A stretch of 63,734 bases of DNA, counting the filler, from Psammoneis japonica (lineage: Eukaryota): the NCBI GenBank assembly GCA_008632985.1. It is 3 parts of 3 records of this genome, joined end to end, with 100 filler letters (N's around TTAATTAATTAA, not from the genome) between each part and the next. Parts side by side here need not be neighbours in the genome. Positions count along the whole stretch, not along the records: positions 45,147 to 63,734 come from QPGO01000464.1; 2 more parts are not named here. One strand, 5' to 3'. The notes under the pieces were generated by a model. That model was given only the letters and a program-made list of their open reading frames with translations. It searched no databases and was not told the origin of the DNA. Below, one piece after another: positions 2,321-63,734 of this stretch (the stretch's first letter is position 1; each line of letters begins with the position of its first letter). A program made the translations under genes and the position numbers.

Positions 2321-2334
2321 CGTGTGTCAATCTG

Positions 2335-13440: not shown

Positions 13441-13452
13441 TGTGTCAATCTG

Positions 13453-33532: not shown

Positions 33533-33777
33533 TGTGATTTTTTATGTTGCGGGGTAGAGGGGGCTTCACTGATGTTTGTAGAAGGTCGCTCTATGCCGCA
33601 ACATGAAAAGTCATGGGTTTTGGGACAATGGTGAGCATCATCGTCGAGCGACCGGGTGCGTGATGATTCTCATGCTTTTTGTTTTCCCGCCAACAAAATG
33701 AAGTTCAACTTGGTGACGTGTTGTGCCAATTGCGCAGAAATCTGCTCCAAATTTCTGAGAGACGAATCCAGTCAATG

Positions 33778-43054: not shown

Positions 43055-43222
43055 TGAAAGTTGTTGAAAGTTACGTCTTTCAACAAAAAGTTGTTGAAAG
43101 TTGCGTCTTTCAACAAAAAGTTGTTGAAAGTTGCGTCTTTCAACAAAAAAGTGTTGAAAGTTAACGACTTTCAACAAAAAGTTGTTGAAAGTTGACGACT
43201 TTCAACAAAAAGTTGTTGAAAG
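43055..43222. repeat. Related 30-bp array, about 5 units, at the other end of the TIR element
   Basis: gttgttgaaagttgcgtctttcaacaaaaa variants. Confidence 0.9.
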
Positions 43223-45046
43223 TTATTTGGCGATAAACGCTGCAATGACTTTCTTGTTATCGAAAACTAAAAAATTGTGTGAGAGAACCCATCCGTTTCT
43301 CGATTGCAATTGTTCATCGCGTGTGTGTGTTGTGGGCAATAGACTGAATTTTGTGCAGTCCAATTCGCTGACTGTGTCGTTGTGCGGACATTGCAAAATG
43401 TCACAAAATTATACAAGAATGAAGCATTTCAATTTGAGTCGTAGTTTCAACAATTTTGAGGCGACTCCCTGGGCTCGGGGCTGTGCCACAGAGGCAAGCG
43501 AATCAATGCTCATAACCTGTCATGTGCACACAAAAGGGCGATTGCACATCCAACCGTTGTTCACACTGGTGACATGCAAGCACATGTGCCACAACACACT
43601 GCACAAAACTCTTGGACACTGCATGGCTCCAATCGGTTCCCAGAAGACCCAATTGAAGAAACTCCAACACAAGAGTGATGCTGCGGCCCTCTTCCTTAGA
43701 TCCTGTCACTTCAATCACATTGAAACATGGAGATGCCACCACGCTTGCTGCCTTTCTTCGATGACTTGCATTTTTCCAAACTCAACCTTCCTTCCCAAAG
43801 AGTTGCTTGCAGTTCAACAGAAAGCCATGGGAATTATTTTTGCCAAATGTGGGTGCAATCAAAGTGCAAAAAGATTCATCTTGTGCGGTCCCCAAGCCCT
43901 GGGAGGCAGAGGTTTTCGATCATTGGATGCAGAGCAAGGCGTTGCTCAACTGCAAATGTCACTGAAGCATTCCAGAGGAGTCACCAAATTAAATCTGGGA
44001 GAGGATCAACCACACAAACTGCTGCACATTGCAGTGTCATGGATCCAACTGAACTCAGAAACGGAGAAAGCTTTCTGTGGGATGCAGGTGCAGAACTCCC
44101 GCATGTGGAATCTTGTTGGTTTGCCTCCGTTCATGTTTTTCTCCACACAGAATTCAAGGAAAAGCACATTTGACTCATTCCGGCATTTTTCCCTTCAACG
44201 TGATGACAATCAGTGCATCATGGACATTGTGCTCCAGTCCCAACTCTTCTCTCACAGAGAAGTCAGATGGATGAATTGCTGTCGACTGCATGTTCAGTGT
44301 TGTCAGTGTCTGACATTGCTCTTGCAGATGGCTTGACATTGGAGGCTACGAAAACAGCAGGAGACCCGTTGCTTCAGAGCAACTCCAGCTCCTTGAACAA
44401 CGTTGAACAGCAAAAACCAGGAACAAGAGCCTGGACCACGTGGCGCAAGTTCTGTGCCTCTCTGTGTCGTTCGGCATCACACACTCTCAAGGAACCTCTT
44501 GGCAATTGGTCAGTGCCTCCATCTCAGATGTGCATGCAAGCCTCAGCACACTTCTCTCCTTCTGAAGAGCAACTGTGTGTTAGATCAACCAACGGATGTC
44601 AAATTTTTCAAGTGAATGGCATGAGGACCAACTCTGTCACAGAGTTGGAGACAGTTCCGGCCCCGTCTGAAGAGTCTTTTCCGGCAGAACTGTCAACAAC
44701 AGAAGATGGTTGATGGGCATTTGCTCCCACACTTCATCATCAGACTTCCTGAGCTCCAGGATCCCAGACATGTTCCAAGACAAACTGCACTTGCTGGGCC
44801 AGTGGAAAGAGAAGTTGTTTGACCAACTGGACTTTCACTCACCACCGCAAATGCCAATCCAATGTTTTGTGTCATCAAAGTTAACAGCTGGCAGTGATGG
44901 ATCCATCAAAGATGGAGCTGCCTTTGGGTAGACAATCACCCTGGACGGTGCACCACTGGTGGATTGTGCAGGACCAGTCTTTGGCAGAAGACCGTCATCA
45001 TGCCGGGCAGAGGCTTGTGGCATTTTGTCCCTCCTTCAATTCATTT

Positions 45047-45146
45047 NNNNNNNNNNNNNNNNNNNNNNNNNNNNNNNNNNNNNNNNNNNNTTAATTAATT
45101 AANNNNNNNNNNNNNNNNNNNNNNNNNNNNNNNNNNNNNNNNNNNN
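45047..45146. other. Assembly join with TTAATTAATTAA linker (45091-45102)
   Basis: Same construct as at 22412. Confidence 0.95.
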
Positions 45147-45816
45147 GTCGAGGAAAACCAAACTAAAGAGGAGGATCCGCATGCAAAGTATCTTGGTAAC
45201 TCACAGCCACTCGTCGCTAGTACAATTAAGGAGACGCTTGAAGATGTTCTATTTGCCATCCGAGAAATCTTGCTGTGTTGTGTTGGACACAATCGAAGCC
45301 GAGTCTCGATTGAAAATGGTTGCTGTCTTTGCTGTCCGAGATCCGAAAAAAATGTCTGTAGTAGTCTTTCTATAATTGGTGGTCTCTTATTACGGTGCTC
45401 TCTCCAGCGACGTAGACGCTTCACCTGATGGAGCTTTGCCGTCAAGGATACTATACGAAAACTAGAAATGCCGCTCACTCAAAGCGCCCAGCAAACGGCT
45501 TCATCAAAAGCAGCAAAGCTAAGGCCGTGTTTGAAAATAATTCTTACTGATGACATTTAGCGATTCCGGTAGAAAACACGTACTATGTATATAGAAAACC
45601 TAATGATAGAATTCATCATGTGGAAAGGTGACAAGGAACGTGACAGTTTCCTCCTTTCGCAGTTATGCCTGTGGAAAACAAAATCCAACTCATTGTACGA
45701 GCATCGATCTACCACGTGCACAGGCACGGATCGTTATGAATTCACCGAAAGACTGAACGAGAATGAATTCTTTCTTCAGGCAGCATTCCCTTCTTGGATT
45801 CTATTTTGCAAATAAA

Positions 45817-48659
45817 TTAGGAATGAAAGACACGACTTCGCATTTTACCACCTTTACCACCCTTGCTGGATGTAGAAGACGTAGGCTTTGCGATGCTTGA
45901 AGAGAAGCCGGATTTTGCATTTCCTCCCTTGCTCTTGGCGGAGGAATAAGCAGCAGATCCTGAAGACGGTTTTGGTTTTAATCCATTCTTTCCGCCCTTG
46001 CCCTTGGAGGAGGAACCGGAGGATCCCTTCTTTCCTCCCTTACTTTTCGAAGAAGAGCCGGAGGATCCCTTCTTTCCTCCCTTACTTTTCGAAGAGGAGC
46101 TCGAGGATCCCTTCTTTCCTCCCTTACCCTTGGAGGAGGACGATTCCTTCTTTCCGCCCTTGCTCCTGGAGGAGGACGAACCCTTCTTTCCGCCCTTGCT
46201 CTTGGAGGAGGACGAACCTTCTTTCCGCCTTTACTCTTCGAGGAGGACGAACCCTTCTTTCCGCCCTTTGATCTGCCCTTGCTCTTCAAGGAGGATGAAC
46301 TTTTCTTTCCTCCCTTGCTCTTTGAGGATGATCCTCCCTTACTTCCCTTGCCTGGTGGCTTCGGCGAAGGTACAGGCGGCTTTGTAGGCTTAGGTGTCGG
46401 AGCAGGAGTCGGCTCAGGTGATGGTTCAGGCGTCGGCTCAGGTGTCGGAGAAGGAGTGGGCTCAGGTGTCGGAGCTGGTGATGCCGGTGGCTTTGGTGAC
46501 GGAGCTGATCCGCCCTTGCTCTTCGACGATCCGCCCTTGCTTGGAGGTTTAGGTGAAGGTGCAGGCGTTGGGACTGGTGTCGGAGCTGGTGTTGCTGGTG
46601 GCTTCGTCGACGGCGCAGGAGTCGGAGCAGGAGTGGGCTCAGGCGTTGGAGCAGGAGTGGGCTCAGGCGTCGGAGCAGGAGTGGGATTAGGTGTCGGAGC
46701 AGGTGTTGCTGGTGGCTTTGGCGACGGCGCTGGAGGCTTTGGCGAAGGGGACGGAGGCTTCGGAGCTGGTGACGGGGGCTTTGGAGACGGTGACGGGGGC
46801 TTAGGCGTCGAATCAGGTGTTGGCGAAGGCGTTGGAGAAGAAGTAGGAACAGACGTCGGGGCAGATGTTGGCGCAGGCGTGGGGGCTTTTGATGGCTCTG
46901 GTGATGGCTTAATTGTTGGAGCTTGTGTAGCAGGTGGCTTCGGCGAAGGCGACGGGGGCTTTGGAGACGGTGACGGTGGCTTCGGCGAAGGCGACGGCGG
47001 CTTCGGAGACGGTGACGGTGGTTTTGGTGAAGGTGATGGGGGCTTGGGCGGACAAGGACCCGGTGATGGCGGCTTTGGCGAAGGGGACGGGGGCTTTGGC
47101 GACGGTGATGGCGGTCTTGGTGCTTTCGTTGGAGCGTCAGTGGCCGGGGTGGTGGCTCCACAGAAGGTGCCAGAGTTTCCGGAGGCGGTGCAAAGGCGAT
47201 GGAGGTTTCGGCGAGGGCGACGGGGGCTTAGGCGAAGGAGATGGTGGCCTTGGGTACTTTGTTGGAGAAAGAGTTGCCGGAGGAGGTGGTGAAGGTGATG
47301 GAGGTTTTGGCGAAGGAGACGGTGGCATTGGGTACTTTGTTGGAGCATGAGTTGCCGGTGGCTTCGGAGAGGGCGACGGGGGCTTGGGCGAAGGTGACGG
47401 GGGCTTTGGGTACTTTGTTGGAGCCGCAGTTGCAGGAGGTTCTGGTTTTGCAGTGGGAGCTACCGGAGGCTTTGGAGAAGGTGACGGAGGCTTTGGGGAA
47501 GGCTTGGGATATTTTGTTGGCGGAAACGTCGGCGCTTTCGTTGGGGGTTTTGACGGAGAGTAATCGGTTCAGGAGGCGTAGTTGGAGATGCCGTTGGCGA
47601 CACGGTTGGCTCCAGAGTAGGAACAACAGTCGGTACAATGGTAATAACTTTATCTGGTGCCGACGGGGCGGGTGTGGGGGGCGGTGACGGCTGCCTCGTC
47701 GGACTGATTGTAATAACCTGTTCTGGTGCCGACGGCGCAGGAGTCGGAGGTGGGGTAGGTGTTGGCGTCGGAGGCGGCGACGGTTGCCTCGTCGGACTGC
47801 TGGTAATGACCTGATCTGGTGCCGACGGCGCAGGAGTCGGAGGTGGTGTAGGTGTGGGCGTCGGGGGCGGCGACGGTTGCCTCGTCGGACTGCTTGTAAT
47901 AACCTGATCTGGTGCCGACGGCGCAGGAGTCGGAGGTGGAGTAGGTGTTGGCGTCGGAGGCGGCGACGGTTGCCTCGTCGGACTGCTTGTAATAACCTGA
48001 TCTGGTGCCGACGGCGCAGGAGTCGGAGGTGGAGTAGGTGTGGGCGTCGGAGGCGGCACTTGATCGGTTGGTGACACTGTTGGGACTACGGTAATAACTG
48101 GATCTGGCGCCGACGGCGCGGGTGTCGGAGGCGGAGTCGGTGCGGATGTCAGAGGCGGAGTCGGACGGGGAGTAGGAGGCGGCGTCGGACTGGGTGTAGG
48201 AGGCGGCGTCGGATTGGATGTAGGGGATATGGTAATAACTGGATCTGGCGCCGACGGTGCGGGTGTCGGAGGTGGCGTTGGGGACGTAGACGGTGATGGC
48301 GTCTGGACTGTGGGCTCAGGACTCGGCGGTGGTGTTGGCGATGTAGTCGGGCTGAGTGTCGGGGAAGGTGTTGGCACAGGCGTGGGTGAAGGAGTAGGAC
48401 CAGCTGTAGGCGACAGAGTCTTAACCGGTTCAGGCGTAGTTGGAGAGGGAGTTGGCCACCTGAAGACAAGGCCGGGGGATTTCGTCGGCGCACAGGTTGT
48501 GGTGTCAATCAGGAGCTCTCTATCTCCCTTACGGAGATGAAATCCTTTTGGGCTTCTTAGAACCTCAAACGCACGACGAAGGATTTTACTGTAGAAGTGT
48601 TCATATGCTGCCGCCTGCGGTGCTACATAAATTAGGAACAGCACAGTTGCAATCCGCAT
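45817..48659 (-). CDS. Secreted Pro/Thr- and Lys/Ser-rich repetitive protein (silaffin/cell-wall-like), paralogue 1; apparent frameshifts in the repeats
   Basis: Signal peptide [21 protein letters not shown] motif, PTPPPTP and KPPSPSP repeats, [10 protein letters not shown] tail ending [16 protein letters not shown] (TAA 45817-45819). Normal TA content. Confidence 0.78.
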
Positions 48660-49364
48660 CGTTTCTTTCACAAGTTACTATCACAAGGCTCGACGAAGAG
48701 GATCTTATCACGTTGTGCGATTGGGTCACAGAGCTTTTGCGTGGATAGTTTGAGTGTTTGTGATCTTTACCAATCCCGAGATATGGAACGCTGATTTGCG
48801 CCGCCCCATCAGGTTCACGTAGGCGTGAAACGAAGTGAGTTCTTTGGCTGGCAAAAAATGTGAGCGGGTCTTGTTGCCGATTTTCAGATGGCAAAATGTG
48901 GTTTGTGTCGTGGAAAATAAATTTATGTTTGTATTCAGAACTAACGTTCCCAATTTCAGGGTACTGTCAATCCTCTTTTATNNNNNNNNNNNNNNNNNNN
49001 NNNNNNNNNNNNNNNNNNNNNNNNNNNNNNNNNNNNNNNNNNNNNNNNNNNNNNNNNNNNNNNNNNNNNNNNNNNNNNNNNNNNNNNNNNNNNNNNNNNN
49101 NNNNNNNNNNNNNNNNNNNNNNNNNNNNNNNNNNNNNNNNNNNNNNNNNNNNNNNNNNNNNNNNNNNNNNNNNNNNNNNNNNNNNNNNNNNNNNNNNNNN
49201 NATGCCCGTGGGCAACAAAATCCAACGTACGCGCATCGAATCTACCACGGTCAGTACGAGTTGAGCTCAAGAAAAAACTCTGACTCGTTAGATTTCATTG
49301 AAAGACTGAAACGAGATTTTTTTTCAAACAGCATTCGCTACTTGGATTCTCTTGTTCAAATCAT

Positions 49365-52300
49365 TTAGGAATGAAAGACCCGACTTCTCATTTTTCCACC
49401 TTTGCCACCCTTGCTGGATGCCGAAGACGGAGGCTTCGCGATGCTTGAAGAGAAGCTAGATTTTGAATGTCCACCCTTGCTCTTGGCAGATGAATAAGTA
49501 GCAGATCCCGAAGACGGTGTAGGTTTGAATCCCATCTTTCCTTCCTTGTCCTTGGAGGAGGAGCCGTAGGATCCCTTCTTTACTCCCTTGCTCTTGGAAG
49601 AAGAGCCCGAGGATCCCTTCTTTTCTCCCTTACCCTTGGAGGAGGACGATCCCTTCTTTCCGCCCTTGTTCTTGGAGGAGGACGAACCCTTCTTTCCGCC
49701 TTTACTTTTAGAGGAGGACGAACCCTTCTTTCCGCCCTTGCTCTTCGAGGAGGATGAACCTTTCTTTCCTCCCTTGCTCTTTGAGGATGATCCTCCCTTG
49801 CTCCCCTTGCTCGGTGGCTTCGGCGAAGGTGCAGGCGGCTTTGTAGGCTTGGGTGTCGGAGCAGAGTGGGAGCTGGTGTTGGCTCATGGGTCGGAGCAGG
49901 AGTGGGCTCAGGTGTCGGCTCATGCGTCGGAGCAGGAGTGGGCTCAGGTGTTGGCTCAGGCGTCGGAGATGGAGTGGGCTCGGGTGTCGGAGCTGGTGAT
50001 GCCGGCGGCTTTGGTGACGGCGCTGACCCGCCCTTGCTCTTGGAGGACGAGCCACCCTTGCCGCCCTTGCTCTTCGACGATCCACCTTCTTTCCGCCCTT
50101 GCTCTTGGAGGAAGACGAACCCTTCTTTCCGCCCTTGGATCCGCCCTTACTCTTCGAGGAGGATGAACCTTTCTTACCTCCCTTGCTCTTTGAGGATGAT
50201 CCTCCCTTGCTTCCCTTGCTCGGTGGCTTCGGCGAAGGTGCAGGCGGCTTTGTAGGCGTGGGTGTCGGAGCAGGAGTGGGAGCTGGTGTTGGCTCAGGCG
50301 TCGGAGCAGGAGTGGGCTCAGGCGTTGGAGCAGGAGTGGGCTCAGGCGTTGGAGCAGGAGTGGGCTCAGGTGTCGGAGCAGGAGTGGGATTAGGTGTCGG
50401 AGCAGGTGTTGCTGGTGGCTTTGGCGACGGCGCTGGAGGCTTTGGCGAAGGGGACGGAGGCTTAGGCGCTGGTGACGGGGGCTTTGGAGACGGTGACGGG
50501 GGCTTAGGCGTCGGATCAGGTGTTGGCGAATGCGTTGGAGAAGAAGTAGGAACAGACGTCGGTGCAGATGTTGGCGCAGGCGTGGGGGCTTTTGATGGCT
50601 CTGGCGATGGCTTAAGGGTTGGTGCTTGTGTAGCAGGTGGCTTCGGCGAAGGCGACGGGGGCTTTGGAGACGGTGATGGTGGCTTTGGCGAAGTCGACGG
50701 CGGCTTCGGAGACGGCGATGGCGGCTTCGGAGACGGTGATGGCGGCTTCGGAGACGGTGATGGCGGCTTCGGAGATGGCGACGGAGGCTTCGGCGGACAA
50801 GGACCCGGTGATGGCGGCTTTGGCGACGGTGGCGGCGGCTTCGGTGATGGTGACGGTGGCTTTGGCGACGGCTTCGGTGCTTTCGTTGGAGCCTCAGTTG
50901 CCGGAGGTGGTGGCTCCACAGAAGGTGCCGCAGTTGCAGGAGGCGGCGGAGAAGGCGACGGAGGTTTCGGCAAAGGTGACGGGGGCTTTGGCGAAGGTGA
51001 TGGCGGCATTGGGTAAGTTGTTGGAGAAAGAGTTGCCGGAGGCGGTGGAGGTTTCGGCGAAGGTGACGGGGGCTTAGGCGAAGGTGAAGGTGGCATTGGG
51101 GATTGTGTTGGAGAAAGAGTTGCCGGAGGAGGTGGTGAAGGTGGTTGAGGTTTCGGCGAAGGTGACGGTGGCTTGGGCGACGGTGGCATTGGGTACTTTG
51201 TTGGAGCGTGAGTTGCCGGTGGCTTCGGAGAGGGCGACGGGGGCTTGGGCGAAGGTGACGGGGGCTTTGGGTACTGTGTTGGAGTTGCAGTTGCAGGAGG
51301 TTCTGTTTGGCAGTCGGAGCTACCGGAGGCTTCGGAGAAGGTGACGGAGGCTTTGGTGAAGGTGACGGGGGCTTTGGGTACTTCGTTGGAGTCGCAGTTG
51401 CAGGAGGTTCTGGTTTGGCAGTCGGAGCTACCGGAGGCTTCGGAGAAGGTGACGGAGGCTTTGGCGAAGGTGACGGGGGCTTTGGGTACTTCGTTGGAGT
51501 CGCAGTTGCAGGAGGCTCTGGTTTGGCAGTCGGAGCTACCGGAGGCTTCGGAGAAGGTGACGGAGGCTTTGGCGAAGGCTTGGGATATTTTGTTGGCGGA
51601 AACGTCGGCGCTTTCGTTGGGGGTTTCGCCGGGGGAGTAATCGGTTCAGGAGGCTTAGTTGGAGATGCCGTTGGCGAAGGAGGGGTAATTGGCGCGGGTG
51701 GCGTGGTTGGAGATGCCGTTGGCGAAGGAGGAGTGATTGGTGCGGGTGGTGCAGTTGGAGATGCCGTTGGTGAAGGAGGGGTAATTGGTGCAGGTGGCGT
51801 AGTGGGTGGCAGCGTCGGGCGGGGTTGAGGCGGTGGGGTATCGGGTTGATCGGTTGGCGACAAGGTTGGCTCCAGAGTAGGAACAACAGTCGGCACAACG
51901 GTAATAACTGCATCTGGTGCCGACGGAGCGGGTGTCGGTGGCGGCGACGGCTGCCTCGTCGGATTGCTTGTAATGACCTGATCTGGTGCCGACGGCGCAG
52001 GAGTCGGAGGTGGAGTAGGTGTGGGCGTCGGGGGCGGCGACGGTTGCCGCGTCGGACTGCTTGTAATAACCTGATCTGGTGCCGACGGCGCAGGAGTCGG
52101 AGGTGGTGTAGGTGTGGGCGTCGGGGGCGGCNGTTGGAGTGGGTGTAGGAGGCGGCGTCGGAGTGGGTGTAGGGATGGGGTAAGTAACTTGATCTGGCGC
52201 CGACGGTGCGGGCGTCGGAGCGGCACTGGTGGCGGTGTCGGACCCGGTTGTGGTGGTGGGGTTTCGGGTTGATCGGTTGGTGACACGGTCGGCTCCAGAG

Positions 52301-54142
52301 TAGGAACAACAGTCGGCCCTACGGTAATAATTTCATCGGGTGCAGACGGGGCGGGTGTCGGAGGAGGACTGGGAGTAGTAGGCGGCGTCGGACTGGGTGT
52401 AGGAGGCGGTGTCGGACTGGATGTAGGGGATACGGTAATAACTGGATCTGGCGCCGACGGTGCGGGTGTCGGAGGCGGAGTCGGTGCGGATGTCGTGGGC
52501 GGCGTCGGACTGGGAGTAGTAGGCGGCGTCGGACTGGGTGTAGGAGGCGGTGTCGGACTGGATGTAGGGGATACGGTAATAACTGGATCTGGCGCCGACG
52601 GTGCGGGTGTCGGAGGCGGAGTCGGTGCAGATGTCGGAGGCGGCGTCGGACTGGGAGTAGGAGGCGGCGTCGGATTGGATGTAGGGGATACGGTAATAAC
52701 TGGATCTGGCGCCGACGGTCGGGGTCGGAGGTGGCGTTGGGGATGTAGACGGTGTTGGTGTCTGGGCTGTTGGCTCCGGACTCGGCGGTGGCGTTGGTGA
52801 TGTAGTTGGGCTGAGTGTCGGGGAAGGTGTAGGCACCAGGCGTGGGAAACAGGTGATGTCGGAGCTGGCGTTGGGGACGAAGACGGTGGTGGCGTCTGTG
52901 TGTTGGCTCCGGACTTGGAGGTGGCGTCGGCGAAGTAGTTGGGCTGAGTGTCACAATAGGTTCTCCCGCGGTTGGAGTAGGTGTCGGCCCCGGCGTCGGC
53001 GAAGGAGTAGGAACAGGTGTTGGTGGTGGTGTGGCCAACGGGTTTGTGACAAACTCGTATACCGCAGTATCCTCGCAAAGTTCGCCAGTAGGGAGAGGTA
53101 GCGCCTCAGCCACAATTTCCGTCCTATAGGTTGACGCGACGCACACGTCGATGGTTTCCGTGTTGGAAACATTACCTTTCTGCCCTGTCGATAGAGGGTT
53201 GGGAAGAAACTGGCCGACAAGGCTGGTGCTGTTCCCATCCCTAGTTTCGTCCAACGTGACCACTCTGATGGGCGTAGACCCCGTATTCTCGACAAAGTAG
53301 GTAACTGAAATGCTGGTAAGGCAGTCTTTGGATGCGCCTCCAACGTCACAGCCCTTCAGATGTAAACTGGCAAGCTCATCGTTGAGGCGCAGTGGGGCTG
53401 TTCCAGCAGCATTGAATGTAATCGTTTGGCCTCCTACCGTACAATTCATGACTGTGGGGAGTGCAGATGAACCCCGGAGATTTGAAACAGCATTTCCAGG
53501 CATCACACCAGACTCACTCGCAAAGCTATTGCCATTTTCATCAATGCAACTAATGTCCACGTCACTTGAAGGAGTATCGCCAGAGCAAGAAAATTCGCTG
53601 CCCTGGGATTGCTTTGAAGCACTGCAGGCGGTTGGCTGGTACACAAAGGTTAGGTCGGTCACAGGGGCACCGGTGAAGCACTGGCCATCCGGTTGAGCAA
53701 TGTTATCGCAGTCGACCGAGGTATCGTCCGTGAGTGTACAGCTGATGGTAGCCTGAACATGGAACAACGAGAAACATGGATAAGTTAGGGGTGCACGTAG
53801 AACTGTCAATAATCAGCGAGTACTTACTTCAGCAATACATTCAAGTCTTTCGGTTGGACTTGGGGTCGGTGATGGAGTAGGACCAGCTGTTGGCGACAGA
53901 GTCTCAACCGGTTCAGGCGTAGTTGGAGAGGGAGTTGGGAACCTGAAGATAAGGCCGGGAGATTTCGTCGGCGCACAGGTTGTGGTGTCAATCAGGAGCT
54001 CTCTATCTCCCTTACGGAGATGAAATCCTTTTGGGCTTCCCAGAATCTCAGAGGCACGACGAAGGATTTTACTGTAGAAGCGTTCATCTGCAGCCGCGTG
54101 CGGTGCTACAGATATCAGGAGCAGCACAGCTGCAATCCGCAT
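49365..54142 (-). CDS. Paralogue 2 of the same secreted protein, with an extra Cys-rich globular domain and one intron
   Basis: [18 protein letters not shown] and the same N- and C-termini. GT-AG intron 53753-53827 joins ECIAE to ATISCTL in frame. Frameshifts and an n in the repeats suggest sequence error. Confidence 0.78.
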
Positions 54143-55122
54143 CGTTTCTCTTTCAAGTCACTAATCACTAACACAAGGCTCGAGAAGGACCTTATCACGA
54201 AGTTCTTTTGGGTCGCTGAGCTGTTGCGAGGAAAATGTGAGTGTTTTTGATCTTTACCAATCCCGAGATATGGAACGCTGAGGTGCGCCGCCACATCGGG
54301 TTCACGTAGAGTAATACGAAGGAAAGTTCTTTGGTTAGCAAAAATGTGAGCGGGTCTTGTTGCCGAGTTTTTTTGAACCCGGTTTCATGATGAATAATTT
54401 TTTTCTCGATACTAAAATGAGTTAGCATCGCAAACGTGTGGTTTGTGTCATGGAAAATAAATAAATAAACCCTATAAAGGTATTTAGGTTTTTTTGTCTA
54501 TGTTGGCTAATACTTGAATATGAATATAATTAAAAGTATATATATGTTTGAAAGTCTATCATTTGATCGCGCTATCACATCCACAAGCTTTCACATTCAA
54601 TTGAATTTTTTAATTTTTATTTCGAGTCGTGTGATGGACCCTCCGTTGAATGTCAAGTGTTATTCAAAGTAACAATGACTGTTTTTGAAGATATACCAAT
54701 CCCGGATGGTCGGCTTGGCTTTCCTCGTTGTCGGAGTGGCGCACTCCAATCGTGACTTCCTGCGTCAGCACTATTTTCCTGCGCGCCATCACCATTTCCC
54801 AGTGGCTGTGACGGATGTCACTTGAAATGTGCTGATAAATGGGGCACATGCAAGAATGCTCAGGCATCAAACGTCACATGATCAGGCATTGTTCACATGT
54901 GGTGTGCGAGGGCAAGAATGTCAACCTTGGTCTCTCTGTGGAGGGTGTTGAGGACAGACACTCCTGACATGTTCACTTGGATGAACGAACTTGAGCAGGG
55001 TTAAAATCCTTGCATCGAGTCCCACAGTCAACTTCGATGCGACACACATGCAGGATTTTTTGTGCAAGTTTGGCTTGGCATTTTTTGAGTCTTACGAGGA
55101 ACAGTGAGATTGTTGCCACAAC

Positions 55123-55519
55123 GACGCGTTCCAGCCCCAGGTGGGACTCCGTGTGACATTGGGCCCGTGGAATTCCACGTGTGAGCTCAATTGTAAAATT
55201 GTTGAGCAATGAACATGTGAATGATTGCCAACAGAAAAAGAGGCAATTTTGCAAACGCATCTCCTCCTCCACACTTTGAGCACATTCTTTGCGCAGCATG
55301 CCCGGGTGTGTTTTCAGACACCAAAGAACATGCCCAGCGCACTTTTGTTGTCACAAATGCAGACAACAGAAAGCCTTTGGCTTCACAAAACAGGCAGTGT
55401 GGAACAAATTTTTGTGATGGAACATGCAGAAATGCACGTGCGAAACATGCGACGGATGATGAAAAACAACCATGTCACAGCTCAGCAGTGCGAGGTCCCA
55501 CCTGGAGCTGGAACGCATC
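55123..55519 (-). mobile_element. GACGCG-family MITE copy 5 (TA-converted)
   Basis: gacgcgttccagccccaggtggga ... tcccacctggagctggaacgcatc. TSD not clean. Confidence 0.88.
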
Positions 55520-56202
55520 GACGACATTGCTGCGCTCTTGCTCAAATTGGCGCTTTTCATGCAGAAACAGCCCAAGTTTTGAGACATGGTTTCCCAAGTC
55601 ACACTTGTGCATCCAAAGCTCCTGGTGGCCTTTGTCAATTCAGCCCCCATGGGTCCTGCCGCAACAGCTTTTTTGGCGCCACCAAGACAGCAGATGTGTG
55701 AGATGACAGGGCTCTCCTCTGACAAAATCAGCACAACCAATTTTCTGTTGACTGTGACACAAACTTTGTCCAAGAGCTCTCTCTCTCTCTCTCTCTTTCT
55801 TGAACAAATGATCAAAATTTCCATCAAATGTGACAAACAAATGGCGCTGGCAGCTGAGGTGAAGCCACTTGATCGGGCACAATTTGTCCAGCTGTTTCAG
55901 CAAACAGCAGGCACAACAACATTGGCCGAAGTCAAGAAAATGAGATTTTTGCAGTGGCTTCATCAGTGGCTAGCTGCTGTTGTTGATGTGTGGTGAGCTT
56001 TTGTGTTGGAACGATCAGAGGGGCAAGGGACAGGCGATTTGAGTCGACTGATTAATTTGATGTCAAGTCACCACGCTGTCTCTCTCTCTTTCTTTTTTTC
56101 TCTCTCTCTCTCTCTCTCTCTCTTGAATGAATGAGTGAATGAATTGGCACACTCTCTTTCTTTGTCTGGACAGGAGTTTGCAACAGGGTGTGGTCCTGCA
56201 CA

Positions 56203-56595
56203 GACGCGTTCCAGCCCCAGGTGGGACTCCGTGTGACATTGGGCCCGTAGAATTCTACGTGCGAGCTCCGTAGTACGAGAATTTAATTAATGGATATATT
56301 TGTCTTCAACATCAAATAAATGGCCAAGTTTGTGGTACAATTATGCCTGTTACCACTTGACGTTTTTCCAAATGCGCCTGCCCTACGCGATTCTTAAGAC
56401 ATTATAGAATCGCGCTGTAACAAAAAAAAATGTCAAAAGTTGTTGGACGGATCGCTCAATAAGTGTACCGTAAAATGACACAAAATGTCGAAAAAATCAC
56501 GTAGAAATCTACGTGCGCGACATACGACGTGATTCAAAAAACTATCGATGTCACAGTTCAGTAGTACGAGGTCCCACCTAGACCTGGAACGCGTC
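56203..56595 (-). mobile_element. GACGCG-family MITE copy 6 (young, TA-retaining)
   Basis: gacgcgttccag...ctggaacgcgtc. Perfect TSD caca at 56199-56202 and 56596-56599. Abundant TA. Confidence 0.93.
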
Positions 56596-59500
56596 CACAG
56601 CAGCAGTGACAGACACAGCCATGTGATGAAATAGCGTCAAGGGAAATTGCTTGCTTTCTTTCAAAACAGTGAACTGGGGGGCTCATTGCAAGAGTTGCAC
56701 ATGCAACATGTTTTCAGCTCCTCTCCTGCTCTTGGTTGTTGATCAGCTGTGCTTCTGTGCACATCAAACATCCAAAAAAAAGGCCTGGAGACAAGACTGA
56801 TTTTGTCAAAAATGCAAGGGTTTCTCAAAGGTGTGGACAAGTCTCCATGAACTGCAAAGCCAAAAATTCATGTCCACATGGCTCACCTGTTTGCATGGCT
56901 TCACACCAAAAAAATCAAAAACAAGCAGCTGATCCATCACTCACAATCCAGGCAACATCCTGGGGTGTGCCAACAATTTGATCTTGTTTCAAGTGCATTG
57001 AAGAGCCCTCCATGGTTGCCGCACTTGTTGGTGTTTGCATGTCAAAATTGCACACACCTTTTCCATTGCTTTTGTTTCAAAGTGAGCTCAGTCAGGTCTG
57101 TCAGTGCACAGCCCCAGAAGATTCTCCTAACTCACATCAAGTTGAGCCACTCCATGTTGCTTGGCACAACCAGTTGCTGGATGATCCATTTCCCACACGC
57201 TGACAGATGAAAGGTGCTTTGGTTGTCGAGTGGGGTCAAATCCTTTCAAGTGCACCTGAATGGATCTGCTTGCATTGGGACACATCCTTTCAAGCCACAC
57301 ACAGCCATGTCAAGCACACAAGAGAACCCGCACGTGTTCTGCATGGCTCACAAGAAACACCCAAGTTTTGACTCCACAGCATGCACCGTGAGCCTTTGGA
57401 ACACATCGGATGCAGAAGCAGCCAGTGATGACATGAACTTTTTTAAGCATGCCATGTGTCAAAAGCGGCCATGCCATGCACAAGGTGGATGTTGGCACCA
57501 AGCATTGTGCTGGCACCTTGGTGGACAATGAGACCTGCAAGATGGGCATCTTTTGGACCAGGAAAAGGGGCTTGAGTGGCAAGGTGATGATTTGGCTTTG
57601 CTTCAAGGATGACTCTGCCAATGAAGCCCACTGGAACAATGCCCGCATGGTGTCTCTCACAAGTTTTTTTTCAGTGGGAGCTGTTGTGTGAAGCAACAGC
57701 TGAGTGTGCAGCTGATCTGCACAGCATCATTTGCTGCAGTTTTGCAAGAGTTGCTGCACACAATTTTGCATTTGTCAACACCAGTTTGTGACAAAACATC
57801 TCAGTGTTTAAATTGGGGAGCTCAATTGACAACCAAATCATTTGTGTTGGCCAGCAGAGCAAAGTTGAAAGCACCGCCAGCTGACAGATTGGTGAGCACC
57901 CCTCATTCATGATTGAGCCTGGGGAGGACATTGGTGGAAATGACAGCTTTGGTCAAGCAAAAGCAAGCTGCAACAAACAAGCACCTTTTCCAACCTTTTG
58001 TGACCACATCAAAGACTCGCAAGGTCTGCTGCACAGAGAGCACCGTTGAGGGTGAGAGCAGCCCACATCATTGAGTCATGTGATGGGCCATCCACTGCAT
58101 GTCTCAACTCCAACACAAAGTGCAGCAAACATGGTGGCATTTCAAATGAGTGCCTGCCCTGGATGTCATTGTGTCCAAGTGATGCACTCCAGTCCTGGTG
58201 TGCCAGCATTGTTTGAAATGTGCCAACCAATGTGGTGCATGCAAAAAATCTCTGGCAGCAACAGACAAGGCAGCTTTGCAATGAAGCTCAACTGAGCTTG
58301 GGGTTGTTGTTGCAAGAGAGAAGTGTGGTGTCTGACCGCTGCTCCTCTTGGCGGATGGATGGCGAGCTGCTCCACTGCACACTGGCACAAATGTTTTTGA
58401 TTTGAAAAAAAAGCCCTCAAGGTGCACAGCTGCACTAGCCCAAAATCATGCTTTTTGCCAAAGAAGGTGCTGGCAAATCCATGTGCCACAGCACCAAAGC
58501 TCACACTCACTGAGCATGCTGCATGACTTCATGCAACAAAAAAGCCAAAACAAACAATTGGCTTCTCACCCACAATCTCAGCAAAGCACCCCATGACAAG
58601 CCAATGGTTGGTCTTGCATCATCAAAAAAGGGGCATGAGCAAAAACCATCCAGTCTTTCTTTGGTGCTTGCTTCAAAGTGAGCTCAGCCACCCCTGTCAG
58701 CATGTGGCTGGCCTTGACTCTGGTTGCCCCCTGCACACCAACAACCCAAGCCACTGCACGCCAGTTTCTGGCCCACCCCTTTCCCAGACATTGAAGAGTG
58801 AAGGCTCTCTCTGTCACATCACAGCCTCCTGCTGCAGCCAGGGCATGATGGTCAGTTGCTCTCTTTCTGCCAAAGAAATGGCATGTTTCACATTTCTTGC
58901 ACTCATCAGTGCACGACTTTTGGAGCCACGCCCCCCCCCCCCCCCCCCTGGCAGAAAAGGATGCTTTGCAGCCAATGTGCTGTTTCAAAAATGAGAGACT
59001 TGAGGTTGGAAAGGGAAAAAAGGAAAGGATCAAAATGGCATGCCTGGCAAATGCAACAAATCCACTCTTGATCCTTGAAGACCCCTGGAGCCTGGAGGCA
59101 TTTGCTTTCACCCTGCACACATCACTGCACAGAAAAGGGTGGTGGCTGTGAAAGTGCACAAAAACAAGCCAAAAGAGAGGAGGCTGTGAAACACCAATGC
59201 AAAACAATCATGAAGAAGAAGCTGTGCTTGCAGAGAGCAGCGGCATGCACTGCTCTGCTTGGACATTCTGTTTCTGCATGATTAAAAGTCAACAACAATG
59301 ACTTGTTCCCACTTTTTTGCTTTCTCTTTTTGCTTTTTGTTGTTGGCATTCCACATGCTCAAGAGGCAACAACACTGCTGATGGGACTGCGTATGAGGGG
59401 CCCAGTCGATTGTAAAATCTGGGAGAGCTCGCCGCACAATTGATCCCTGCAATTACAATCGAGTCATGAATGACGACATTATGCACGACCAAAGCACTGA

Positions 59501-60105
59501 CAAAATGAAGAGGAGCTGCTTGGCTGACAGTGCGTGCAATGCATGGTTTTCTTCAGCGAAAGTGACATTGGGGCAGAGCGAACGCTTCATCTCTAGATGG
59601 GACAGCTACGCACGAAGCGTTTGACACTAAAGAAATTTTCCGTCACTGCGTATGTTACTGTCAGTCGATGTCACTATCGGACTTAAGCATTGCTTGCACA
59701 AGGATGGCGGTTTCAAGGACGACCAATAGATGATGTCGGGGCTCCGTTTGTCATTTGAGAGTAATGTAGTGCCCGTTGTCTTCAACCCTTGACGAAACAT
59801 ACAAATTTTGAACCGACACAGGCGATATCTTTTAAAAAGAGTGATGGTGCGAGTAGCAAAGAAGCAAAAGATTATCGGGATGCGTTCAGTTTTTCTCCTT
59901 CTTCCATACTCACTCTATCTATCCAAGACGTTACTCACTCATGAAATGCAGTTAGCGTCTCGTTGTTTGTTTGAATATAGGATGGTATGACCGTCTTCTT
60001 GGACTAGGAATCCAGTTTTGTATCTGGAACAGGATGTGTATCCAATGATATCTCGAAGCACCCAACGGTTGCTGCTCAAAGCAGTTAAACGACAAAGAAA
60101 AACCT

Positions 60106-62022
60106 CTAGGCGATACGGATAGTATGGGTGCAAAATCGTTCCAATTGTTCGTCGGAGTGTGTCACGAGAATGACAGGAATACCAGAATCAACGAGGGTCG
60201 TTTCCACCAATGATGAAGTTTTCTTGTCGAGTGCTCCCATGGATTCATCCAAGAGCAGAACTGTTGGTTTCAACGATAGGGCAATTGCAAGTGAGGCACG
60301 CTGTGCTTCCCCTCCCGATAAGGTAGACCAAGATTGATCCAAGGCGCTTGGATGTAAGCTCCACTGGATGCAATACTGGTCGGGACAAGGGGTGTTATCT
60401 TTCTCATTCTTCATTCGTCGGCTTTTGTAGCCAAGTACTTCGTTGAAAAACATTCTTGGAGTTCCACCGAGCGTTGGTTTATCCTGTGGTAACCAAGATA
60501 CCATGGATCGCCATTGGGCAAGACTATAGCTAGGCGAAACAGCACCGTTCAAAGAGATTTGCTTGTCATTTGTACCACTGAATACCTCAAACGCAGCAAG
60601 AGTTCTCAATAGCTGCGTCTTCCCTGATCCACTTGGGCCCATAACTCCGATACGGTCGCCATGAAAAAGATTGAATGAAACAGTTCGATGGTCGCGATGC
60701 CCGACCTTGACTTTGAGTTCTTTAACCTCCAAAACCGGCATATCTCTGCGGTCTTTTTTATCCGGCGTGCTCATCTCCATCGCCTTTATGGTGGGAGAAT
60801 TCTCGAATGAAGGTACTGACAAGCTCCCCGTTGAAGCCTTGGGTGAGTTCAGTCGAGTGTGTTTAGGATCTGCTGATAATCGAATACCGACAATCGATGC
60901 TACAAGTCGCCAGATGTAAGCTGATGGTGATTTGTCGCGGCTTATTGTGCCTTGATCTTGTGCTTGTTTGCCGCCCGTGTTTATTGAATAAAGTCGAGTC
61001 AGAGTGAGTGTTTCGCTAGCAAACATTTCGCGCTTAACCAATTGACAAAGGACAAGAACCATTGCGCAGGCACTGGTGGTAATGAAAAATAAAATCATGA
61101 CTTGGTATGCCGCCGCTTGATGCGGCGACTGTCCCGCCAATATTTGCCCCGACATCATGCCAGGCATGTGTACAATACCCGTAATGGAAAGAGAGTTGAT
61201 GGCGGGTGTTAGAGCGGACGTCAGAGCTGTCCGCACATGTGGTAACGCCGCCTCATCCGACGACGCACCACGAGCCAAGCGCAGTTCGATCTGATCTCTT
61301 CGAAGGGCGAATTCCTTTGTAAGCGAATCCGCAGCTAAACTAGCAGCTGATAAGGTATTACCAAATATCATTCCAGATATCGGGATAACGGTTCTTGGTT
61401 GAAACCAGGGATCGAGATTTCCCAATACATTCCACAGCAATGCAAGTCCCAGTACCGATAGCCCACCGGATAGTACAGAAACTACCAAGTGCTTGCTCAA
61501 CGCGGGATAGGAATACTCAACGCGCATATACGATTCATAGGCTGCAATTATTCCCACTCCAATAATCCATGACATGACAATGGCAGGATTGGTTGTTCCA
61601 AACAGTCTCGTGAGTATCAACGACCCCACCAGATAGAGTTGAAGCGCACACCGACCGCATGCAATCATAATCTGAACCGACAGCCGCTTCAGTCCTGCAA
61701 TTCTCATTCCTACACCACCAACCGATAAAGCCATACAAGCAGCGATTCCGAGCTTTTTCAATTCAAGTGGATGAGCTTGTGTTATTGGTGACGGAGAAGC
61801 AGCAGACGAAGCAGCAGACGCGGGAGACTTTGCCAGAATGAACCACGAAAGAATCATAGCCATTACGAAGTATATTTTTCTTCTCTGCTTTCTCGGTTCT
61901 CTATTCGCATTGGTCTTGAAGATACTGAATGGCCGTCGTCCAACGTCTCTCGTGTGTATGGTTCGATTGATGCGGTTGTTTTCTTCTGGACATTGTATGT
62001 TTGACTTTGCCAATGTCGACAT
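60106..62022 (-). CDS. Fused UPF0014 (FetB/YbbM, STAR2/ALS3-like) permease + ABC ATPase (FetA/STAR1-like)
   Basis: PWFQPRTVIPISGMIFGN, GIVHMPGMMSGQILAGQSP..AAAYQ; Walker A GPSGSGKT, signature LSGGEAQR, Walker B LLLDE, H-loop VTH. The true start may lie further upstream. Confidence 0.9.
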   Translation of the reverse strand: MSTLAKSNIQCPEENNRINRTIHTRDVGRRPFSIFKTNANREPRKQRRKIYFVMAMILSWFILAKSPASAASSAASPSPITQAHPLELKKLGIAACMALSVGGVGMRIAGLKRLSVQIMIACGRCALQLYLVGSLILTRLFGTTNPAIVMSWIIGVGIIAAYESYMRVEYSYPALSKHLVVSVLSGGLSVLGLALLWNVLGNLDPWFQPRTVIPISGMIFGNTLSAASLAADSLTKEFALRRDQIELRLARGASSDEAALPHVRTALTSALTPAINSLSITGIVHMPGMMSGQILAGQSPHQAAAYQVMILFFITTSACAMVLVLCQLVKREMFASETLTLTRLYSINTGGKQAQDQGTISRDKSPSAYIWRLVASIVGIRLSADPKHTRLNSPKASTGSLSVPSFENSPTIKAMEMSTPDKKDRRDMPVLEVKELKVKVGHRDHRTVSFNLFHGDRIGVMGPSGSGKTQLLRTLAAFEVFSGTNDKQISLNGAVSPSYSLAQWRSMVSWLPQDKPTLGGTPRMFFNEVLGYKSRRMKNEKDNTPCPDQYCIQWSLHPSALDQSWSTLSGGEAQRASLAIALSLKPTVLLLDESMGALDKKTSSLVETTLVDSGIPVILVTHSDEQLERFCTHTIRIA

Positions 62023-62465
62023 GACAATGTTCTGCTCTGTTTGAAACTAGAAACTGCAATATTTTGACGAGGCTCCCAAAAGATGGGGCAGATAAAGGCC
62101 TCCGCTTGATTAGCCAGGCACCAGCAACAGCAACCTGTCATCAACATGCGTTGATAATGCCGTAAAGATGAGCATGGTGCTCTCTTCATTTTTCTTCAAT
62201 TTTTTGTATTTTTTGTGCGTGAAGATCATCATCGATCGACGGCCGGCGGCCGCGCTGTCGCCTTGCTATGGTTTTCGAATCGAGCTCCCATTGTTTTAAA
62301 AAAAATCGATCTCGTGCACGCGGAACAGCCCACCGCATCATCGCGCACACAACATCACATCACATCCGCATCGTCCATCGCACACGGCATGACGATCACG
62401 ATCACATCGCATCATCCATCACATCCTCAATCTGCGGCGCCATCATCAAACCACCAAACAAGACA

Positions 62466-63507
62466 ATGAGGTTGCGTTCAGTGTTTATACGTCTTCTTTC
62501 ATGTGTTCCCGCCCTAGTTGCATCACTTAATGTTTCACCATCTGCTTATGGTGGGAAGAGTATCAGCAGAAGAGATGCATTCGTTCGTACGAGCTCTGCT
62601 GCTGTTGCTGTTGGAAGCGGTGTTCTTTTACCAAATCATGACAACAGAGCAATAGCGGCATCTCCCTCTACAACAACTACTACGCTGGAGGGCGGCTACG
62701 AGTTTCCGTTGGCGAGTTTTGGACTGCAGATCTATGACGACGACAAGGCATACAAGCTGACTCGAACAGCTCTGGAGGTGGGATATCGAAACTTTTTTGC
62801 ATCTGTTCTGGCTGGCAACCAACGTGGCTTTGCCAAGGCAGTTCGAGATTCTGGAATTGACCGATCTGAAATATTTATTTCTGGATCCGTGGTTTCCAAT
62901 CGTGTGCAAGGATTTGATGCGGCTTACAAGGCTACAACGAAGGGATGGAAACAGAACCTCGAGGCGTTTGCTGTGGGTGGTATTGACTATCTTGATCAAA
63001 TCATGTTGGATTATCCCGGGCCGGACTGCGATTCCATTCGTGGACAGTGGAAAGCATTTCAGGATATGCACAATCAGAAACTTACAAGGACTCTTTCTAT
63101 ATCCAACTTTTCACCCAAACAAATCGATTGTATTCTGGAGGACCCGGCTCTCCAAGTCAAGCCTGTCGTGAATCAATTGCCGCTTTCGGTAGCATACCAT
63201 CCTGGTGGNGGGGCTCAAAAGCATTGTACAGGAGAACAAGAAACGAGGTGTACTGGTACAAGCTTGGGCTCCTTTGGGAGGGAGTCTAGGAGGGAGATTT
63301 ACTTCGCAAATGAAAGCAAAATGCGCAGACATTGGGAAAGCCTATGATAAAAGTGGAGCTCAAGTCGCGTTGCGTTGGATTGTCCAGAACGGCGCCTCCT
63401 TTACCACGCAAAGCAAGAAGAAGGATCACTTTATCGAAAACCTACAAGTGTTTGACTTTCAGCTATCACCTGATGAAATGGCACTTTTGGATGGACTTGC
63501 TTCCTGA
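62466..63507 (+). CDS. Aldo/keto reductase family protein with signal/transit leader; frameshift at the ambiguous base ~63209
   Basis: ALEVGYRNF, DRSEIFI, DYLDQIMLDYP, LSISNFS, KPVVNQL, then VQAWAPLG, AQVALRWIVQ and ENLQVFDFQLS in the next frame. Confidence 0.9.
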
Positions 63508-63734
63508 GAGACAAGTAAGAATGCTTGCTGCTAAAGAGTATTCTCAAACACCGAGGCGTCGCCACCGCTTTAAAGCTTTCATAGCATACTCGTAGCTTTT
63601 GTATCTCTGCTGAATTGATTCATTAGCCAAGCCAAAATGCTATTGCGTTACTGCTTTAGGTATAAAAGAGTTCCGATTGGCGGCATCATTACCTTCGACT
63701 ACTGCACAAATAATGCTACGTATTCACCTCACCG

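Follow-up and report, generated by a model that had tools for sequence, protein, structure and literature searches.

Evidence for near-complete conversion of TpA to TpG and CpA in transposon-derived domains of Psammoneis japonica DNA, with one apparently recent, unconverted MITE copy

Why does one copy of a short transposable element keep its TpA dinucleotides where its relatives, and the DNA around it, have almost none? The question is raised by a window of 63,734 nucleotides (nt) from Psammoneis japonica (assembly GCA_008632985.1), the whole stretch of DNA analysed here, which contains six copies of a miniature inverted-repeat transposable element (MITE) of about 395 bp. The TpA observed/expected ratio (o/e) of the window is 0.25 and its distribution is bimodal. 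With a probability of about 0.8, we attribute this pattern to a process that would have converted TpA to TpG or CpA on discrete transposon-derived domains, almost to completion, while sparing the genes, copy 6 of the element being a recent insertion that has escaped conversion. All coordinates, copy counts and comparisons are within this window. It consists of three assembly pieces (1-22367, 22468-45046 and 45147-63734), plus internal gaps. The pieces are concatenated scaffolds joined by N44-TTAATTAATTAA-N44 linkers at 22368-22467 and 45047-45146, and copies 1-4 therefore lie on a different scaffold from copies 5-6.

Loss of TpA across the copies of the element

A sequence-only reading of this DNA had compared short stretches of copy 6 (GGGCCCGTAGAATTCTACG and CAGTAGTACGAGGTCCCACCTAGA) with those of copy 5 (GGGCCCGTGGAATTCCACG and CAGCAGTGCGAGGTCCCACCTGGA) and, on the plus strand, of copy 3 (CGCAGAATTCTACG) and copy 1 (CGCAGAATTCTGCG); all of these strings were recovered exactly. 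It had proposed that one and the same site resolves to TG or CA depending on the copy, and that TA is the ancestral state. Copy 6 contains 27 TpA, compared with 1, 0, 0, 5 and 7 in copies 5, 2, 4, 1 and 3, respectively. When its 27 TpA sites were followed through the five other copies (135 cells), TG was found in 38 cells, CA in 39, TA in 3, and another state or a gap in 55, the two products being balanced. At 8 of these sites TG as well as CA was seen among the old copies, as had been claimed. Among the ungapped cells, TpA was kept in 3 of 125, whereas each of the 15 remaining dinucleotides was kept in 29-66 %, and CpG in 68 of 130 MITE cells. In the conserved termini, TpA was kept in 3 of 55 cells and the other dinucleotides in 540 of 856 (Fisher P 2e-18, with non-independent cells because copies 1/3 and 2/4 are paired). 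By hand count, copies 5 and 6 differ at 9 positions over about 115 terminal nt, namely five TpA sites (all converted), two CpG sites and two positions elsewhere, indicating that TpA conversion was complete at about 2 % background divergence.

Both ends of the element carry GACGCGTTCCAG....AGGTGGGA as terminal inverted repeats (TIRs), and this terminal pattern, with up to 3 mismatches, gave 10 matches in the window and none in each of 100 shuffles. The element is about 395 bp long, with TIRs of about 24-30 nt, a 4-bp target-site duplication (TSD) and no coding capacity; the TSD is perfect in three of four independent insertions (CACA, TTGC and AAAC), while copy 5 has none. In Repbase, MITEs, as non-autonomous TIR DNA transposons, are sorted by termini and TSD (PMC4455052). 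The present element resembles MITEs in its length, TIRs, 4-bp TSD and lack of coding, and its high summed depth and possible presence/absence polymorphism may also be in line with a MITE. From the variable sequence of its 4-bp TSD, we presume the candidate superfamily to be Sola or Ginger1, and take Tc1/mariner, PIF, hAT and piggyBac to fit poorly. A terminal-pattern search found no autonomous partner sharing the MITE termini in the window, the MITE terminus had 0 matches among metagenome contigs, and copy 6 matched no phage record.

Copy 6 is 58-60 % identical overall to the other copies and aligns well only over about 80 nt on the left and about 50-100 nt on the right; it belongs to a separate subfamily whose ends are common to the other copies. 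The idea of young and old copies of one MITE thus holds for the termini and fails for the rest, copy 6 being of another subfamily. Nor can the six copies be treated as independent, since copies 1/3 and 2/4 are partners within a 5.5-kb duplication, which leaves three independent old lineages.

A 26-bp satellite, AAACACGGAAATGCGGGAAAACACGA, lies on both sides of copies 2/4 (4556-4743, 5147-5524, 15982-16150 and 16546-16923). The TSD AAAC of these copies is part of the satellite unit, and the units differ from each other at CG/TG/CA positions.

Direction of the change

At the TpA sites of copy 6, CG was found in only 1 of the 135 cells, and given that CpG is otherwise often kept (68/130), a CpG ancestor of these sites is excluded. 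Creation of TA in copy 6 in the manner of repeat-induced point mutation (RIP) is excluded likewise, because of its CpG o/e of 1.51 and because of outgroups from other organisms. These outgroups are the homologues of two TpA-poor open reading frames (ORFs), both transposase-like, whose relatives are metagenome proteins. For the ORF at 31172-33541, a total of 2,522 relatives reach E <= 1e-3 (best E 1.8e-84), and columns with Tyr in at least 60 % of the 50 best-scoring of 150 listed relatives were taken as conserved. At 10 such columns, this ORF has Tyr once, Cys three times (TGT/TGC), His twice (CAC/CAT), Phe three times and Ser once; other conserved residues were retained in 121 of 139 columns, compared with 1 of 10 for Tyr (Fisher P 5e-7). 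The ORF at 9756-12035 has one strong homologue (E 1e-113; overall identity 240/587), and at the 18 aligned Tyr of that homologue it shows Tyr twice, Cys three times and His three times. Tyr accounts for 4 of 790 and 4 of 760 residues in the two ORFs (0.5 % each), compared with 4.1 % and 3.1 % in the respective homologues. The loss of Tyr to Cys and His relative to homologues indicates that TA was the ancestral state and that the changes were TA to TG and TA to CA. Together with the near absence of CG, this bears out the earlier proposal, and by comparison with other organisms the polarity can be taken as established. In that part of the ORF at 9756-12035 that lies inside the duplication, 13 codon differences included no Cys/His split at a homologue Tyr.

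For the ORF at 31172-33541, Pfam gave no match in the ORF or in its top 11 hits, nor one common among 44 aligned members, and a PDB profile search yielded nothing credible; its assignment as DDE_3 (Atlas score 0.94) is a lead. No TIRs flanking this ORF were found. A palindromic motif, GATTCT(T/C)AAGAATCG, is repeated upstream of it at 33790-34530, and GATTCTTAAGACATTATAGAATCG in copy 6 (56400-56430) is similar to this motif. Such a motif may be a transposase-binding motif common to the MITE and to the element that carries the ORF; the termini of the two differ.

TpA-depleted domains

Depleted domains make up 41.9 kb of the window, with a TpA o/e of 0.10, TpG/CpA of 1.61, CpG of 0.56 and a GC content of 0.48. 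The corresponding values in the gene islands (17.7 kb) are 0.63 for TpA, 1.06 for TpG/CpA and 0.95 for CpG, and the ABC and Pro/Thr (PT)-rich genes have a TpA o/e of 0.62-0.64. The domain that contains copies 5 and 6 has edges at about 54.84 kb and 59.28 kb: TpA is dense up to about 54.8 kb and dense again from 59,283, and the single-copy DNA flanking copy 6 has a TpA o/e of about 0.05. In all windows over 1-17 kb, the TpA o/e is 0.00-0.13, the TpG o/e 1.49-2.25 and the CpA o/e 1.28-1.84, and likewise at 22-28 kb and 57-59 kb (TpG and CpA taken separately, not as the combined Rho of the preprint discussed below). Relative to the gene-island baseline, a TA loss of 29.6/kb and a CG loss of 32.4/kb predict, by our own arithmetic, a TG gain of 31/kb, and 34 was observed. 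The dinucleotide composition establishes that TpA loss follows a domain pattern.

The depleted DNA holds the two transposase-like ORFs and five MITE copies. For most of it no origin could be recognised: in a family scan of 85 frames, once the gene islands and the frame of the 30-bp repeat are set aside, a weak Plavaka match was the sole one at E <= 0.001. Tandem paralogous genes (72-87 % identical) retain TpA. Taken together, the depleted single-copy flanks, the TpA-normal, high-depth family of copy 6 and these TpA-keeping paralogues indicate that the process is probably not triggered by repetition as such. TpA-rich spots at 28.2-28.5 kb and 34.75-35.0 kb were considered as further young insertions and rejected, as neither TIR nor TSD was seen.

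The CpG o/e drops to 0.1-0.4 in TpA-poor DNA at 22500-26000, 35000-37000, 44000-45000 and 57000-59000, and remains near 0.9-1.0 in other TpA-poor stretches (4-6 kb and 16-17 kb). CpG looks like a second hypermutable dinucleotide, probably methylated, that is affected unevenly over the same domains. A 30-bp tandem array at 41217-41811 (19.8 copies, 97 % matches), with a related array 1.2 kb away at 43057-43225, retains a TpA in the GTTAGAT of each unit amid TpA-poor DNA; the array may be either young or in a resistant context.

In-place conversion before and after a local duplication

The two copies of the 5.5-kb duplication (1-5539 and 11117-16938) are 95-97.6 % identical and differ by 165 substitutions, of which 108 have an unambiguous context: 75 are between CpG and TpG/CpA, 8 between TpA and TpG/CpA, 10 are transversions and 15 other transitions. 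A further 17 isolated sites carry CA in one duplicate but TG in its partner; every one of them falls within 2898-4966, and 1-2800 has none. At the rate derived from the single differences, CpG decay is expected to give 2.4 such sites in the stretch and 4.1 overall (Poisson P 9e-10 and 2e-6). Most simply, the stretch would have had about 35 convertible TpA at the time of duplication, and both of its copies would then have been converted independently. The adjoining MITE copies 2/4 have nearly all TG/CA states in common, indicating that their conversion preceded the duplication. Conversion of copies 2/4 before the duplication and of 2898-4966 after it implies that the activity came in two or more phases or extended over one long period. 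Between copies 1 and 3 there are four differences that involve TpA; by outgroup and on our own reading, three of these are TA to TG/CA and one is TG to TA. Comparison of the duplicates in this way demonstrates that conversion went on after the local duplication. A stretch of 298 bp (14501-14798) is found in the second duplication copy only; it is not TpA-rich and has no obvious TIR.

Age of copy 6

Sequencing runs X1-X3 represent one sample, which may be the assembly's own source. One X1 contig, with a depth of 51.9 (single-copy level), joins 56198 to 56596, skipping 397 bases that correspond to the element plus one CACA. This contig differs from the window at 56626 and 56633 and is hence assigned to another haplotype or strain. 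The summed contig depth over copy 6 is 75,520-152,088, compared with about 45-70 in the flanks (depth is not copy number here). Inside copy 6, among the differences listed, one substitution (56302) and one 3-nt deletion reach a share of at least 10 %, neither of them at a TpA. Again among the differences listed, two of the ten residual TpA of the surrounding domain (55194 and 57444) appear as CA in X1, while a CA at 55662 appears there as TA; the former two may be an indirect hint of new mutations. No empty-site joint for copy 5 was found among the X1 joints listed, where gaps between contigs were not counted as absence.

Copy 6 does have a perfect CACA/CACA TSD within TA-depleted flanks, as the sequence-only reading had stated: excluding the copy itself, 54840-59282 contains 10 TpA in about 4.0 kb, compared with 27 in the 393 bp of copy 6. 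The use of this TSD as an age mark had to be abandoned, since old copies also have perfect TSDs (TTGC in copy 3; AAAC in copies 2/4). The empty-site contig is in line with the proposal that copy 6 was inserted after mutagenesis; for copy 6 itself, the 'episode' of that proposal is inseparable from a continuous slow process. From these data copy 6 looks young and would post-date the mutagenesis.

Sequence preference, strands and effect on codons

The share of TTAA among the residual TpA is 0.238 in depleted DNA and 0.038 in gene islands, that of ATAT is 0 and 0.055, respectively, and residual GTAT/ATAC is at 0.18 of its baseline share. TpA survival by context is 0.08 for TAT, 0.12 for TAC, 0.18 for TAG and 0.36 for TAA, and among the products TGC and TGT rise most. 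In the MITE copies (R, purine; Y, pyrimidine), RTAR gave CA 12 times and TG twice, and YTAY gave TG seven times and CA five times, a difference with P 0.04 (two informative classes, with partly dependent lineages); the two products numbered 10 and 3 in RTAY, and 4 and 4 in YTAR. A preference for T-A-pyrimidine, with TTAA resistant, is a lead suggested by these counts, the product in the MITE copies varying with the flanks in the way that such a rule would predict.

Both strands were hit within single copies: in copy 5, TG (6 sites) and CA (8 sites) are interleaved, which argues against strand-coordinated editing of a single-stranded intermediate. With the near-equal totals over all copies, this establishes, from the products, equal use of the two strands.

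Conversion of TA to TG or CA creates no new in-frame stop, because a stop arises only from TAA to TGA and TAA is already a stop. TAA plus TAG amount to 4.5/kb in depleted DNA, compared with 16.4/kb in gene islands, the dead transposase-like frames are open over 790 and 760 codons, and at least 74 ORFs of at least 150 aa are found in the window. The inference we draw is that genes would be inactivated by missense changes only (e.g. removal of Tyr), unlike in RIP. For annotation, the scarcity of TAA and TAG means that long spurious or dead ORFs will be abundant in depleted DNA.

Features of the window and its genes

The features discussed are collected in Table 1. The window carries eukaryote-type genes, namely a UPF0014+ABC_tran fusion, an aldo/keto reductase and Pro/Thr-rich membrane proteins, and its genes are without evident introns. 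The closest relatives of the UPF0014+ABC_tran protein are 44-47 % identical, and the sole named one, from the diatom Attheya, is 37 % identical; the Atlas cluster matching this protein is eukaryotic, with diatoms most frequent. The protein collection, transcriptome-derived proteins included, gave no near-identical match to it. Genes for Pro/Thr/Ser-rich repeat proteins occur as two tandem paralogues at 45900-53900 (minus strand), with a third at 18242-20953 (plus strand). One of the proteins, with an N-terminal DUF7467 domain, had no relatives in the protein collection; a membrane span lies at the C-terminus of the one of 904 aa. Scanning the window with Rfam and for tRNAs gave no matches. At 61414-63209 there are 15 gaps between an X1 contig and the window, among them insertions at 62266 (3 letters) and 62327 (11 letters), and the aldo/keto reductase frame is broken near an N at 63209; these gaps could be assembly error or indel polymorphism within a gene.

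Table 1. Positions of the element copies, ORFs, domains and gene island in the window
Feature	Position	Strand	Description
Copy 1	1674-2069	-	Old, 5 TpA; TSD TTGT/TTGC; duplicate partner of copy 3
Copy 2	4753-5146	+	Old, 0 TpA; TSD AAAC/AAAC; inside 26-bp satellite; duplicate partner of copy 4
Copy 3	12790-13187	-	Old, 7 TpA; TSD TTGC/TTGC; duplicate partner of copy 1
Copy 4	16152-16545	+	Old, 0 TpA; TSD AAAC/AAAC; duplicate partner of copy 2
Copy 5	55123-55519	+	Old, converted, 1 TpA; no recognisable TSD (CAAC / GACG)
Copy 6	56203-56595	+	393-bp TIR element, unconverted, 27 TpA; TpA o/e 0.86, CpG o/e 1.51; high-depth family
Left TSD of copy 6 (CACA)	56199-56202		Right TSD CACA at 56596-56599
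ORF, 790 aa	31172-33541	-	TpA-poor (21 TpA, o/e 0.14), 4 Tyr; transposase-like large family without Pfam model
ORF, 760 aa	9756-12035	+	TpA-poor (11 TpA, o/e 0.08), 4 Tyr; weak Plavaka (KDZ transposase) match
Depleted domain with copies 5 and 6	54840-59282		10 TpA outside copy 6; sharp edges; single-copy depth in run X1
Depleted domain with copies 1-4 and both duplication copies	1-17300		TpA o/e 0.00-0.13 per kb
Second assembly piece	22468-45046		TpA-poor throughout, o/e mostly 0.06-0.3
Stretch with 17 CA-vs-TG sites	2898-4966		Partner stretch 14016-16365
TpA-normal gene island	59283-63734		UPF0014+ABC_tran gene 60106-62022 (-); aldo/keto reductase 62268-63504 (+)

Proposed explanation and alternatives

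We propose that the mutation is an A:T-to-G:C transition at the palindromic TpA, on either strand, and that the process would work in situ, on separate domains of non-genic DNA derived from transposons, leaving genes and their surroundings untouched. Old TIR insertions of about 395 bp would have been converted along with their surroundings, and copy 6, of a currently abundant and homogeneous subfamily, would have entered an already converted domain so recently that one sequenced haplotype or strain lacks it. The chemistry is most likely adenine deamination in a T-A-pyrimidine context, within silenced and probably CpG-methylated chromatin, and the most likely function would be defence against mobile or foreign DNA.

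Several points weigh against this explanation. The comparison is limited to six copies with three independent old lineages, and the interior of copy 6 aligns poorly, with 3-13 of about 20 matches per block in columns 96-315. Where all old copies agree (e.g. columns 288, 330, 351, 390 and 393), a subfamily difference is, in this alignment, indistinguishable from conversion. The CpG class dominates the single differences between the duplicates (75/108), and the eight TpA differences alone carry no direction. That the 17 CA/TG sites were originally TA is deduced, and by outgroup the one at 4966 is CpG-derived. The T-A-Y preference depends on a genic baseline and small counts. Among the 40 listed differences between the window and X1 (there are 68 further ones), three are TA to CA and one is CA to TA. 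Finally, the enzyme, the base modification and the chromatin state are deduced steps in what we propose. As for a possible insertion polymorphism of copy 6, the one X1 contig with an empty site may speak in its favour, and its joint falls short: the short side has 25 letters, below the 31-letter bridging rule, 5 letters fit either side, and the joint is flagged 'between: not known'. The sum 25+5 equals k-1 for 31-mer contigs, which would be compatible with a fork between alleles with and without the element.

As TpA is palindromic, the base that was hit is indistinguishable by sequence, and T-A-Y reads R-T-A on the other strand; the modified base might therefore be the thymine of TpA (e.g. 5-hydroxymethyluracil or a base-J-like form), which would mispair with G to give T to C. 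In dinoflagellate DNA, 5-hydroxymethyluracil is found preferentially at TpA and TpC. The only experimental report, however, favours an adenine deaminase, as a hypothesis, and no evidence of thymine modification was found here; we regard a thymine target as unlikely. Far less credible is the reverse polarity, in which the family of copy 6 gained TpA from CpA and TpG by RIP-like C-to-T change and the TG/CA copies are the unmutated ones. Classical RIP does turn CpA and TpG into TpA, and sites where the old copies agree are formally ambiguous, but the eight sites with both TG and CA require a TA (or CG) intermediate, and the composition of copy 6 is ordinary (CpG o/e 1.51, CpA 0.85 and TpG 1.22). 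The single-copy flanks at a TpA o/e of about 0.05, and conserved Tyr replaced by Cys/His in two ORFs relative to homologues of other organisms, also contradict it. Decay of methylated CpG to TpG/CpA, with the low TpA unrelated, accounts for 75 of the 108 unambiguous duplicate differences and for a CpG o/e of 0.56 in depleted domains (0.1-0.3 in some stretches), and by MITE outgroups, on our own reading, nine changes are decay and three are gain. Decay is nevertheless incapable of removing TpA (o/e 0.10), CG occurs in 1 of 135 cells, Tyr to Cys/His requires TA to TG/CA, and the 17 CA/TG sites exceed the 2.4-4.1 expected. As a sole cause it is hardly tenable; it is best seen as a real second process in the same domains and not as an alternative.

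Mild under-representation of TpA is general, as in the gene islands (o/e 0.63), and selection against TpA (UpA) for RNA stability, nuclease sensitivity or DNA structure could be invoked. The depleted DNA is non-genic, however, and decays by missense change; conserved Tyr of the catalytic region were lost while about 87 % of other conserved residues were kept, the reverse of what selection for function would give, and the domains have edges within which a recent insertion is TpA-normal, all of which makes selection very improbable. The same low standing is given to editing before integration, with the elements mutated as RNA, complementary DNA or extrachromosomal DNA in the manner of ADAR or APOBEC. 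ADAR has a preference for a 5' U. That preference is also remarked on in the available part of a preprint on Bigelowiella natans (bioRxiv 10.64898/2026.01.13.699255). The elements here are DNA transposons with TIRs and TSDs, though, and the surrounding single-copy DNA is equally depleted; the duplicates diverged at the same kind of sites after duplication, and hits on the two strands are interleaved in one copy, without strand-coordinated runs. ADAR/APOBEC-type hyperediting was rejected on the absence of strand-coordinated clusters (TG 6 and CA 8 in copy 5; totals 38 and 39).

Comparison with known systems

Directed hypermutation of mobile DNA is known chiefly as C-to-T change, as in RIP and by APOBEC. 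RIP, in Neurospora and other ascomycetes, makes TpA from CpA and TpG, lowers GC and creates stop codons. The process proposed here is, like RIP, a hypermutation by transitions at specific dinucleotides, damaging mobile DNA in place and on both strands, but it destroys TpA, raises GC and makes no stop, and in the window single-copy DNA is depleted while a high-depth repeat family is untouched. Ascomycete-type RIP was rejected: in place of an excess of TpA and AT-rich DNA we found a TpA o/e of 0.10 and a GC content of 0.48, and the polarity is reversed. A RIP-like trigger by repetition was likewise rejected, as the depleted flanks are single-copy and both the family of copy 6 and tandem paralogues 72-87 % identical keep TpA. 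When 5-methylcytosine is deaminated, the strand that is hit decides whether the palindromic CpG becomes TpG or CpA. This decay shares with TpA conversion the palindromic dinucleotide, the strand-dependent product and the domains, but acts on CpG and is far less complete here (68/130 kept, compared with 3/125 for TpA).

The closest counterpart is found in B. natans, where, according to the part of the preprint available, 230 of 231 mutations in two viral inserts of mutation-accumulation lines were A to G or T to C, all at TpA, were confined to some lines, and arose de novo at about 1000x the background rate (Mettrop et al. 2026, bioRxiv 10.64898/2026.01.13.699255). The B. natans genome has 124 TpA-poor clusters enriched in DDE endonuclease and reverse transcriptase domains, and an ADAT2-like deaminase was proposed (bioRxiv 10.64898/2026.01.13.699255). 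As far as that text goes, the two cases are alike in transitions only at TpA to TpG/CpA, domain-wise action, a bias towards GC, runs of 1-kb windows poor in TpA and rich in CpA+TpG, and transposon-type domains. They differ in that B. natans offers de novo mutations in two partly depleted viral inserts (Rho TpA 0.45), whereas the changes in our window are deduced from sequence and lie in transposon-derived and single-copy DNA with hardly any TpA left (o/e about 0.05-0.1). In a full-text literature search that covered few subscription journals, the TpA signature appeared only in the B. natans preprint, the other papers being on RIP or viruses.

We suggest, tentatively and with more doubt than confidence, that P. 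japonica may be a second organism besides B. natans with a TpA-erasing system, perhaps a T-A-pyrimidine-specific DNA adenine editor that spares TTAA, targets silenced chromatin domains with CpG methylation rather than repeats as such, and kills by missense only, leaving frames open. This suggestion rests on the lack of evident introns, on the absence of a matching protein from the collection and on the diatom-like character of the best protein relatives. If this is true, such a 'reverse RIP' would be a wider eukaryotic genome defence, and the abundant MITE family would either post-date its last active phase or escape its targeting. The window would represent the end state on transposons, with TpA nearly gone, Tyr codons lost and frames open; insertions of different age could serve as a clock for the process, and the window offers leads on what the enzyme prefers (T-A-Y, TTAA being resistant) and on how it is targeted, namely to domains where CpG is lost as well. 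Systems of this kind have been described in one preprint, and the present DNA would be either a further case or a new lineage, with added detail. Trinucleotide context, a lack of new stops, CpG decay in the same domains and MITEs go unmentioned in the available part of the preprint, and the possible additions from P. japonica to the B. natans case are accordingly its MITEs, the near-complete end state, the T-A-Y rule, the absence of new stops and the co-located CpG decay.

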